Shown here in pieces: positions 14,825-15,287 of a DNA stretch of 64,000 bases (within the stretch, counting starts at the first letter, position 1; each line of letters opens with the position of its first letter). Below the pieces are notes generated by a model. The model worked only from the letters and a program-made list of their open reading frames with translations. It did not search any database and was not told the DNA's origin. The position numbers were made by a program, and so were the translations under genes. The DNA is from Escherichia coli O157:H7 (GTDB lineage: Bacteria; Pseudomonadota; Gammaproteobacteria; Enterobacterales; Enterobacteriaceae), in the NCBI RefSeq assembly GCF_013167455.1, contig NZ_CP038328.1; one strand, written 5' to 3'.

Positions 14825-14836
14825 TTAGCAAGCTAA
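14825..14836. promoter_or_regulatory. SlyA binding site (TTAGCAAGCTAA palindrome) overlapping slyA translation-initiation region
   Basis: Exact 12-bp palindrome TTAGCAAGCTAA 11 bp upstream of the ATG; matches recalled SlyA consensus. Confidence 0.65.
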
Positions 14837-14846
14837 TTATAAGGAG

Positions 14847-15287
14847 ATGAAATTGGAATCGCCACTAGGTTCTGATCTGGCACGGTTGGTGCGCATATGG
14901 CGTGCTCTGATAGACCATCGCCTGAAACCGCTGGAGTTAACACAAACCCATTGGGTTACGTTACACAATATCCATCAGTTACCTCCAGACCAGTCGCAAA
15001 TTCAACTGGCAAAAGCGATTGGCATCGAGCAGCCATCACTGGTCCGTACTCTGGACCAACTGGAAGAAAAAGGGTTAATTTCGCGTCAAACTTGTGCCAG
15101 CGATCGTCGGGCTAAACGTATTAAACTGACGGAAAAGGCAGAGCCGCTGATCAGCGAAATGGAAGCTGTTATTAACAAAACCCGCGCGGAAATTTTACAT
15201 GGCATCTCCGCAGAGGAACTGGAACAACTGATTACGCTCATCGCAAAACTTGAGCATAATATCATTGAGTTACAGGCCAAAGGGTGA
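14847..15287 (+). CDS. slyA: MarR-family transcriptional regulator SlyA (146 aa from ATG 14847; 144 aa if TTG 14853 is used)
   Basis: ORF track 146 aa [15 protein letters not shown]...; SD AAGGAG at 14841-14846 directly abuts the ATG, so spacing is better for TTG at 14853. Confidence 0.9.

Follow-up and report, generated by a model that had tools for sequence, protein, structure and literature searches.

The slyA start codon and the adjoining SlyA box in the control region common to slyA and ydhIJK of Escherichia coli

Translation of slyA very probably starts at the TTG codon at position 14853, with no detectable use of the in-frame ATG at 14847, and the 12-bp SlyA box upstream of both codons very probably is the operator of the slyA–ydhIJK control region. 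The TTG start and the SlyA box were both already known, and each element has been noted in the literature. Together, the weak UUG codon and the self-operator keep SlyA scarce, at approximately 1000 dimers per cell (PMC3173223), and the level of SlyA decides the countering of H-NS silencing at fimbrial, capsule and toxin genes. An earlier interpretation made from the letters of the DNA (the sequence-only reading) had placed the box at 14825–14836, the Shine–Dalgarno (SD) sequence at 14841–14846, the ATG at 14847 and the TTG at 14853, and all of these coordinates were exact on re-reading.

The slyA locus

In the RefSeq annotation, the locus at approximately 14400–15500 of the window (the whole 64-kb stretch of DNA that was analysed) was ordered ydhK–ydhJ–ydhI (minus strand), slyA (plus strand), slyB (minus strand) and anmK (plus strand). 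The intergenic stretch separating slyA from ydhI was 200 bp long. The genes and the hairpin that frame the elements discussed here were:

14416–14652, minus strand: ydhI, which opens the divergent ydhIJK efflux operon and has a regulatory region in common with slyA (RefSeq annotation).
14853–15287, plus strand: slyA coding sequence, MarR-family regulator of 144 amino acids plus stop (435 nt; RefSeq/PGAP, NCBIfam NF002926).
15298–15325, no strand assigned: terminator-like hairpin, 12 bp and GC-rich, between the convergent genes slyA and slyB (sequence scan).

The slyA reading frame closed with a stop codon at 15285–15287. The protein matched the NCBIfam equivalog NF002926 with 278.7 bits (cutoff 120), residues 1–143 aligning to profile positions 1–143 of 144. 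Among protein structures it matched PDB entries 3q5f, 3qpt and 3deu, with 3q5f, the structure of Salmonella SlyA, giving E = 1.9e-79, and the RovA structures 4aih–4aik also matched. The match to the MarR model was weak (31 bits, cutoff 240). A 751-bp segment of the slyA locus was 100% identical to an E. coli chromosome; of 5426 complete E. coli genomes, 5423 contained it. The 80-mer at 14805–14884 was unchanged in 5261 of these 5423 genomes, and the most divergent 80-mer among those listed was changed at 14813 and 14824 only, outside the box, the SD and the start codons.

Start codon of slyA

Three elements define the translation start:

14841–14846, plus strand: Shine–Dalgarno sequence AAGGAG (sequence; invariant in 80 of 80 species).
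14847–14849, plus strand: in-frame ATG adjoining the SD, not the observed start (sequence, comparisons, N-terminomics).
14853–14855, plus strand: TTG initiation codon of slyA (RefSeq, N-terminomics, conservation).

The sequence-only reading had described the ATG as abutting the SD and the TTG as better spaced, and the measured distances from the 3' end of the SD bore this out, with 0 nt to the ATG and 6 nt to the TTG. The UUG is thereby an NTG at a functional distance (approximately 5–9 nt) after an SD. Between the ATG (14847–14849) and the TTG (14853–14855) lay an AAA codon, and the open reading frame encoded 146 amino acids from the ATG and 144 from the TTG. Three E. coli records (those of an O157-like strain, of K-12 MG1655 and of strain M-17) had the RefSeq/PGAP start at the TTG, and position 1 of the NF002926 profile aligned to the TTG-encoded residue. 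Messenger RNA structure was rejected as a cause of the start choice, as the fold of 14814–14900 (−14.9 kcal/mol, z = +1.12) was not more stable than those of shuffled sequences.

For Salmonella slyA, papers citing Kawakami et al. from 1999 relate that the start is reportedly TTG. In E. coli K-12, the TRAINSPOTTER N-terminomics data list slyA (b1642) as 'dbTIS, TTG, near-cognate' (PMC13245402, Table S1, row 352). The N-terminal peptide covers residues 1–11 of 144 and has the support of Ribo-RET, INRI-seq and REPARATION (PMC13245402). The N-terminomics table is ordered by locus tag, with alternative starts beside annotated ones (PMC13245402); among its rows listed, the adjacent ones belong to other genes, none gives a second slyA N-terminus, and the core of the slyA peptide occurs a single time. 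Since a Met stands directly before Glu where the genome has TTG, initiation took place at that TTG. N-terminal proteomics or initiation profiling had been named by the sequence-only reading as the way to check the start, and within the published rows this check exists as a TTG-start peptide accompanied by Ribo-RET and INRI-seq evidence (PMC13245402). Replacement of the native UUG by AUG raised SlyA more than 5-fold and also raised fimB expression (McVicker et al., PMC3173223). In Klebsiella pneumoniae, KvrA with a C-terminal FLAG tag appeared as a doublet that its authors ascribe to modification; the doublet is also compatible with a minor 146-aa form, though this is not the authors' explanation.

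Public databases frequently give the other start. Models beginning MKLESPLG included one from Salmonella (P0014; 146 aa, 1556 members), one from K. pneumoniae (P0072; 1006 members) and a further one (P0065). The K. pneumoniae gene has an annotated length of 441 nt and the E. coli gene one of 435 nt, and a 2024 paper describes the kvrA start in K. pneumoniae as still formally undetermined. Among public entries for Salmonella, Klebsiella and Enterobacter, thousands let SlyA/KvrA begin at the ATG that is not used (146 aa), and this affects construct design and N-terminal tagging. The start codon 'ambiguity' raised by the sequence-only reading is a matter of database annotation, where it stands, and not of biology, where the TTG is the observed start.

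Comparison of orthologous loci

The start region was compared across 89 orthologous loci, 80 from Enterobacteriaceae species and nine from more distant organisms. All matches of the first protein search had at least 82% identity; the distant orthologues were reached with an approximate RovA-like query and came from eight genera (Yersinia aldovae, Y. pestis, Serratia, Hafnia, Photorhabdus, Sodalis, Edwardsiella, Moellerella and Gibbsiella). At the position aligned with 14853, 79 of the 80 Enterobacteriaceae species had TTG and the remaining one had ATG, and the ATG upstream of the TTG was kept in 78 of the 80. In Cedecea sulfonylureivorans (L043), a 1-nt deletion made the start an ATG and put the old ATG out of frame. 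In an uncultured Enterobacteriaceae genome (L075), AGG replaced the upstream ATG and the TTG was kept. None of the 80 Enterobacteriaceae species retained the ATG and lost the start at the TTG position.

At the distant loci, seven of the codons at the TTG position were TTG and two were GTG, preceded in all nine by AAGGAG(G) 5–6 nt before the start, and an ATG two codons upstream of the start was found in none of the nine. Most of them carried an in-frame stop 3–42 nt upstream; in Serratia, a TAA stood directly upstream. A '146-aa' model from Y. pestis was considered as an N-terminal extension and rejected, as it had the same TTG start and an internal EQV duplication instead. Because the nine distant loci had TTG or GTG without an upstream ATG, the non-AUG start at the slyA TTG position is ancestral in the order, and the upstream ATG is an addition confined to Enterobacteriaceae. 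The conservation of this ATG in 78 of 80 species would be unexplained if the codon had no function, though hardly any position varies in the entire 40-bp block. With regard to the start itself, the RefSeq coding sequence, the profile, the 89 loci and the N-terminomics all agree with the earlier statement that the TTG gives the 144-aa SlyA.

The SlyA box and other elements of the intergenic region

The following elements were found between ydhI and slyA:

14825–14836, no strand assigned: SlyA box TTAGCAAGCTAA, matching the published consensus at 12 of 12 positions (sequence, PMC5797941).
14686–14697, no strand assigned: second candidate SlyA site TTAGATTAATAA, fitting TTAN6TAA, in a poorly conserved stretch.
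14779–14790, no strand assigned: inferred candidate site TTAGCAATACAA, 9 of 12 positions against the SlyA consensus, partly conserved (sequence).
14802–14808, both strands: conserved −10-like TATTCT (plus strand, 14802–14807) and TAGAAT (minus strand, 14808–14803), candidate core promoter elements.
14816–14821, plus strand: conserved −10-like CATAAT, which is TATAAT in most other genera, candidate core promoter element.

The box was an imperfect palindrome in which AA at the centre stood between the 5-bp arms TTAGC and GCTAA, and TTAT separated its end at 14836 from the beginning of the SD at 14841. The sequence-only reading had called the 12-mer at 14825–14836 a perfect SlyA consensus, and it agreed with the published consensus at all 12 positions (PMC5797941). 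The same consensus is given in PMC2156107 as well as in PMC5797941, and exactly TTAGCAAGCTAA appears there as the PslyA site, with a position 22 bp upstream of slyA (Curran 2017, PMC5797941), a distance with which that from the box centre (approximately 14830) to the TTG at 14853 agrees. An example of a scrambled sequence for TTAGCAAGCTAA is GGAGCAAGCTCC.

The exact 12-mer occurred once in the 64-kb window, where shuffles gave an expectation of 0.01. Sites with up to two mismatches were not enriched in the window (4 against 5.07 expected). The relaxed pattern TTAN6TAA was approximately 2-fold above expectation window-wide; as just two copies lay in the slyA region, this window-wide excess adds nothing about the slyA box.

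Across species, the box was exact in 77 of the 80 Enterobacteriaceae. At the same offset from the SD, 10–11 of its 12 positions were kept in Serratia, Hafnia and Yersinia: the Serratia box was the perfect palindrome TTAGCATGCTAA, the Hafnia box was TTAGCACGCTAA and the Yersinia box was CTAGCACGCTAA (10 of 12). The position was degenerate in Moellerella and Gibbsiella. Approximately 90 bp 5' of the TTG was almost invariant in the 80 species, and 14653–14760 was poorly conserved; this pattern agrees with the description of the slyA upstream region in Will 2019.

Binding of SlyA to this region has been demonstrated. A 200-bp fragment corresponding to 14653–14852 (primers TC65 and TC66) was used in a series of SlyA electrophoretic mobility shift assays (PMC5797941), in which all SlyA-bound fragments, PslyA among them, contained a consensus-like site (PMC5797941). 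A fragment of approximately 14748–14919 served as the positive control for SlyA binding (McVicker et al.). The 12-mer is accordingly supported as a SlyA operator site in the slyA control region, with the binding taken from the literature.

Of the other elements, TTAGATTAATAA has been given as a site 161 bp upstream of slyA (PMC5797941, Table 3). TTAGCAATACAA overlapped the inverted repeat AGCAAT-ACA-ATTGCT (14781–14795). A SlyA site with 75% identity lies near the −35 of the Salmonella ydhI transcription start site (Will 2019). The −10-like CATAAT ended 3 nt before the box. On the plus strand, no sigma-70 promoter was found at the scan threshold. On the minus strand, the scan returned TTGCTA (14831–14826) and TAGAAT (14808–14803), 17 nt apart.

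Autoregulation and alternative readings

As SlyA is a DNA-binding protein, the overlap of the box with the initiation region has consequences for transcription and none for translation. In the reading that we prefer, the SD AAGGAG (14841–14846) would position ribosomes for initiation at the weak UUG at 14853, giving the 144-aa protein, and the AUG at 14847, which touches the SD, would have no detectable use. The weak UUG, well spaced from a strong SD, would limit translation and hold SlyA at a low level, an effect that has been demonstrated. The box at 14825–14836 would act as a high-affinity SlyA operator common to slyA and ydhIJK. A SlyA dimer on it would cover approximately 20 bp, from the conserved −10-like CATAAT to the DNA that encodes the SD; MarR-type dimers protect approximately 20 bp (PMC2156107). 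Bound SlyA would hinder RNA polymerase at the transcription start or just beyond it in the classical MarR manner, as we infer for E. coli, and aromatic carboxylate ligands would relieve the interference.

The geometry of the box relative to the E. coli transcription start depends on which −10 candidate is taken. The candidate at 14802–14807 would put the box at approximately +11 to +24, and that at 14816–14821 would put it at approximately −4 to +10; judged from the sequence, both positions are compatible with repression. In vitro, purified SlyA repressed Salmonella slyA 5.3-fold and ydhI 19-fold (Will 2019). Salicylate relieved the in vitro repression of slyA and ydhI, halving that of slyA (Will 2019). 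When slyA was carried on a multicopy plasmid in E. coli, its transcript rose by just approximately 3-fold, from which the authors concluded that autoregulation limits expression, and ydhIJK rose 2.2-fold on overproduction of SlyA (Curran 2017, PMC5797941).

Published accounts disagree on the sign of slyA autoregulation in E. coli, and for the net effect in vivo repression is the sign presumed here. [quoted passage not shown] Together with the rise of ydhIJK, this title indicates that simple repression may not describe the net effect in vivo. That SlyA at the box activates slyA in E. coli is, among the alternatives, an unlikely reading that nevertheless carries some weight: the title speaks for it, as does the 2.2-fold increase of the divergent operon with excess SlyA (PMC5797941). 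An activator would be unusually placed at a site near the start codon that coincides with or follows any plausible transcription start; in vitro, repression is seen for the near-identical region of Salmonella (Will 2019) and likewise for Yersinia rovA, and the limited transcript rise from the multicopy plasmid was read as limiting autoregulation (PMC5797941).

The minus-strand hexamers raise another possibility, which we regard as rather improbable, namely that the box is chiefly the operator of the divergent ydhIJK operon, where SlyA would occlude a −35 inside the box, and that slyA autoregulation is secondary. TTGCTA (14831–14826) does lie inside the box, it and the −10 TAGAAT (14808–14803) were both invariant in the 80 species, and the in vitro repression by SlyA was stronger for ydhI than for slyA (19-fold against 5.3-fold; Will 2019). 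Yet the salicylate-sensitive site near the Salmonella ydhI −35 has only 75% identity to the consensus and is not the perfect box (Will 2019), the candidate divergent promoter would imply a ydhI leader of approximately 145 nt, and the single match of the promoter scan, against 1.6 expected, was within chance.

We give little credence to a further group of proposals, in which the AUG at 14847 acts as a decoy competing with the UUG for the P site, or is a low-level or conditional start that yields a minor 146-aa proteoform, or in which the box doubles as the divergent −35. If the AUG were a decoy, its competition with the UUG would tune SlyA output; if the box were the divergent −35, one SlyA dimer would gate both directions.

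Very unlikely is the reading in which the ATG at 14847 is the true or a second start and a 146-aa SlyA (MKLESPLG...) is made instead of, or beside, the 144-aa protein. The ATG is the stronger codon and is present in 78 of 80 Enterobacteriaceae species, many public models begin there (P0014, P0072, P0065), the annotated gene of K. pneumoniae has 6 nt more, and the KvrA-FLAG doublet could be taken as two forms, although a difference of two amino acids is an unlikely source of a clear KvrA doublet. Against this start stands its spacing of 0 nt from the SD. Among the N-terminomics rows listed for E. coli, only the TTG-start peptide is reported, and Met before Glu arises by TTG initiation only. Exchange of UUG for AUG lifts SlyA more than 5-fold (PMC3173223), and the upstream ATG is lacking from all nine distant loci and was lost in C. 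sulfonylureivorans (L043) and in the uncultured genome (L075).

That the 12-mer is a functionless chance match can practically be dismissed: the box was not enriched at up to two mismatches in the window, but an exact match was expected only 0.01 times per window, and this one lies in the control region of slyA itself, recurs unchanged in 77 of 80 species and falls inside a SlyA-bound fragment.

Comparison with known systems

The closest counterpart of the preferred reading, with its UUG start and self-operator, is slyA of Salmonella enterica. Loci from two subspecies (L027 and L033) were identical to E. coli from the box to codon 4, with the UUG 6 nt after AAGGAG, the unused AUG adjoining the SD, and TTAGCAAGCTAA 4 nt before the SD. 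The SlyA operator consensus itself was reportedly derived from the Salmonella slyA promoter by Stapleton et al. in 2002. In contrast, the intergenic sequence farther upstream has diverged (conservation profile; Will 2019), and the E. coli slyA promoter is approximately 10-fold weaker than that of Salmonella in a pagC read-out described in the literature.

Yersinia rovA, the slyA orthologue, likewise had TTG as the aligned codon, AAGGAGG ending 5 nt before it and the 10-of-12 box CTAGCACGCTAA, and for RovA the literature describes autorepression in vitro and a response to salicylate. Unlike slyA, rovA had no in-frame ATG upstream; Y. pestis and Y. pseudotuberculosis no longer possess ydhIJK, and the transcription start sites are located elsewhere (Will 2019).

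With the classical MarR operators (marO-MarR), the slyA system has in common a winged-helix dimer, a pseudo-palindromic operator in a shared divergent region, a neighbouring operon for an efflux pump and relief through aromatic carboxylates (for SlyA, Will 2019). SlyA differs from MarR in that it is also a genome-wide H-NS counter-silencer (PMC5797941, PMC2156107, Will 2019). With regard to initiation, slyA resembles other UUG-start genes of E. coli, such as rpsT (PMC13245402), in which a near-cognate UUG at a standard distance from the SD is translated as initiator Met. It differs from genes of the rpsT type by the in-frame AUG two codons upstream, which is often chosen by gene callers.

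Protein models and natural variants at the slyA start

The public protein models of SlyA and its Klebsiella pneumoniae orthologue KvrA (P0010, P0014, P0065 and P0072) came in two lengths, 144 aa (MESPLG...) versus 146 aa (MKLESPLG...), the former starting at the TTG at 14853 and the latter at the in-frame ATG two codons upstream (14847). The big Salmonella and Klebsiella clusters were modelled from the ATG, contrary to the experiments on the SlyA start. Two further length differences were seen among the models. The 146-aa length of the Yersinia pestis protein (P0122) was explained by an internal EQV duplication, and a 148-aa Cedecea model (P0229) had the N-terminus MKLESPSPLGSDL, with a duplicated two-residue 'SP' just past the start region.

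Among the slyA loci of the 80 Enterobacteriaceae species compared, two natural variants bear on the choice of start codon. In Cedecea sulfonylureivorans (L043:1441-1521), a 1-nt T deletion yielded ATG where the other loci have the TTG start, and it shifted the old ATG out of frame. In Enterobacteriaceae UBA5654 (L075:1441-1521), the upstream ATG was changed to AGG, while the TTG was unchanged.

In the centroid RNA fold, the UUG start was predicted to lie within a 9-bp stem (14852-14876; AUUGGAAUC paired with GGUUCUGAU) containing three G-U pairs. The overall stability of the fold around the UUG start was no better than that of shuffles, and a mismatch in the stem was present in Yersinia.

The slyA-ydhI intergenic region

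Two candidate elements were located between slyA and ydhI:

14803-14831, minus strand, promoter-like site directed at ydhI (promoter scan)
14779-14795 region, candidate SlyA-like site TTAGCAATACAA, agreeing with the SlyA consensus at 9/12 positions

The −35 hexamer of the promoter-like site (TTGCTA) lay inside the SlyA box (14825-14836) and its −10 hexamer (TAGAAT) overlapped the plus-strand TATTCT. According to the conservation profile, both hexamers were unchanged in all 80 species. The site may act as a core promoter in both directions, or the hexamers may just be conserved for other causes. The SlyA-like site overlapped a 6-bp inverted repeat (AGCAAT-ACA-ATTGCT) and was in part E. coli-specific in the same profile. 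A SlyA site with 75% identity has been described for Salmonella ydhI (Will 2019), of which the E. coli site may be the counterpart. The relaxed motif TTAN6TAA occurred 21 times in the whole window (11.15 expected), a count reached in just 1 of 100 shuffles; the majority of copies were distant from slyA.

The slyA region was missing from 3 of 5426 E. coli genomes and plasmid-borne in one. In one E. coli genome (H20, NZ_CP034966.1), the match was interrupted at query position 180 (window position ~14779) and was divided between two locations. This break suggests that the slyA promoter region there has been rearranged or has taken up an insertion.

Downstream of slyA and within the ydhI operon

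One element was found by sequence scan between the convergent genes slyA and slyB:

15298-15325, 12-bp GC-rich hairpin and T-run

This hairpin is likely the slyA terminator and is perhaps bidirectional.

The longest ydhJ open reading frame (13556-14455, 299 aa from the TTG at 14455) overlapped ydhI, and the shorter RefSeq model (285 aa) ended at ~14413, immediately past the ydhI stop. ydhJ is a further case of start-site choice, within the operon it shares with ydhI.

Comparison with Klebsiella and Salmonella

C-terminally FLAG-tagged KvrA of K. pneumoniae ran as a doublet, explained by the authors as modification, and the sRNA OmrB pairs inside the kvrA coding sequence from +81 to +88 (PMC11347178). 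The reported effects of SlyA on ydhIJK (ydhI, 14416-14652) are opposite in direction: ydhIJK was 2.2-fold up in E. coli when SlyA was overproduced (Curran 2017), whereas Salmonella ydhI was repressed 19-fold by SlyA during in vitro transcription (Will 2019).
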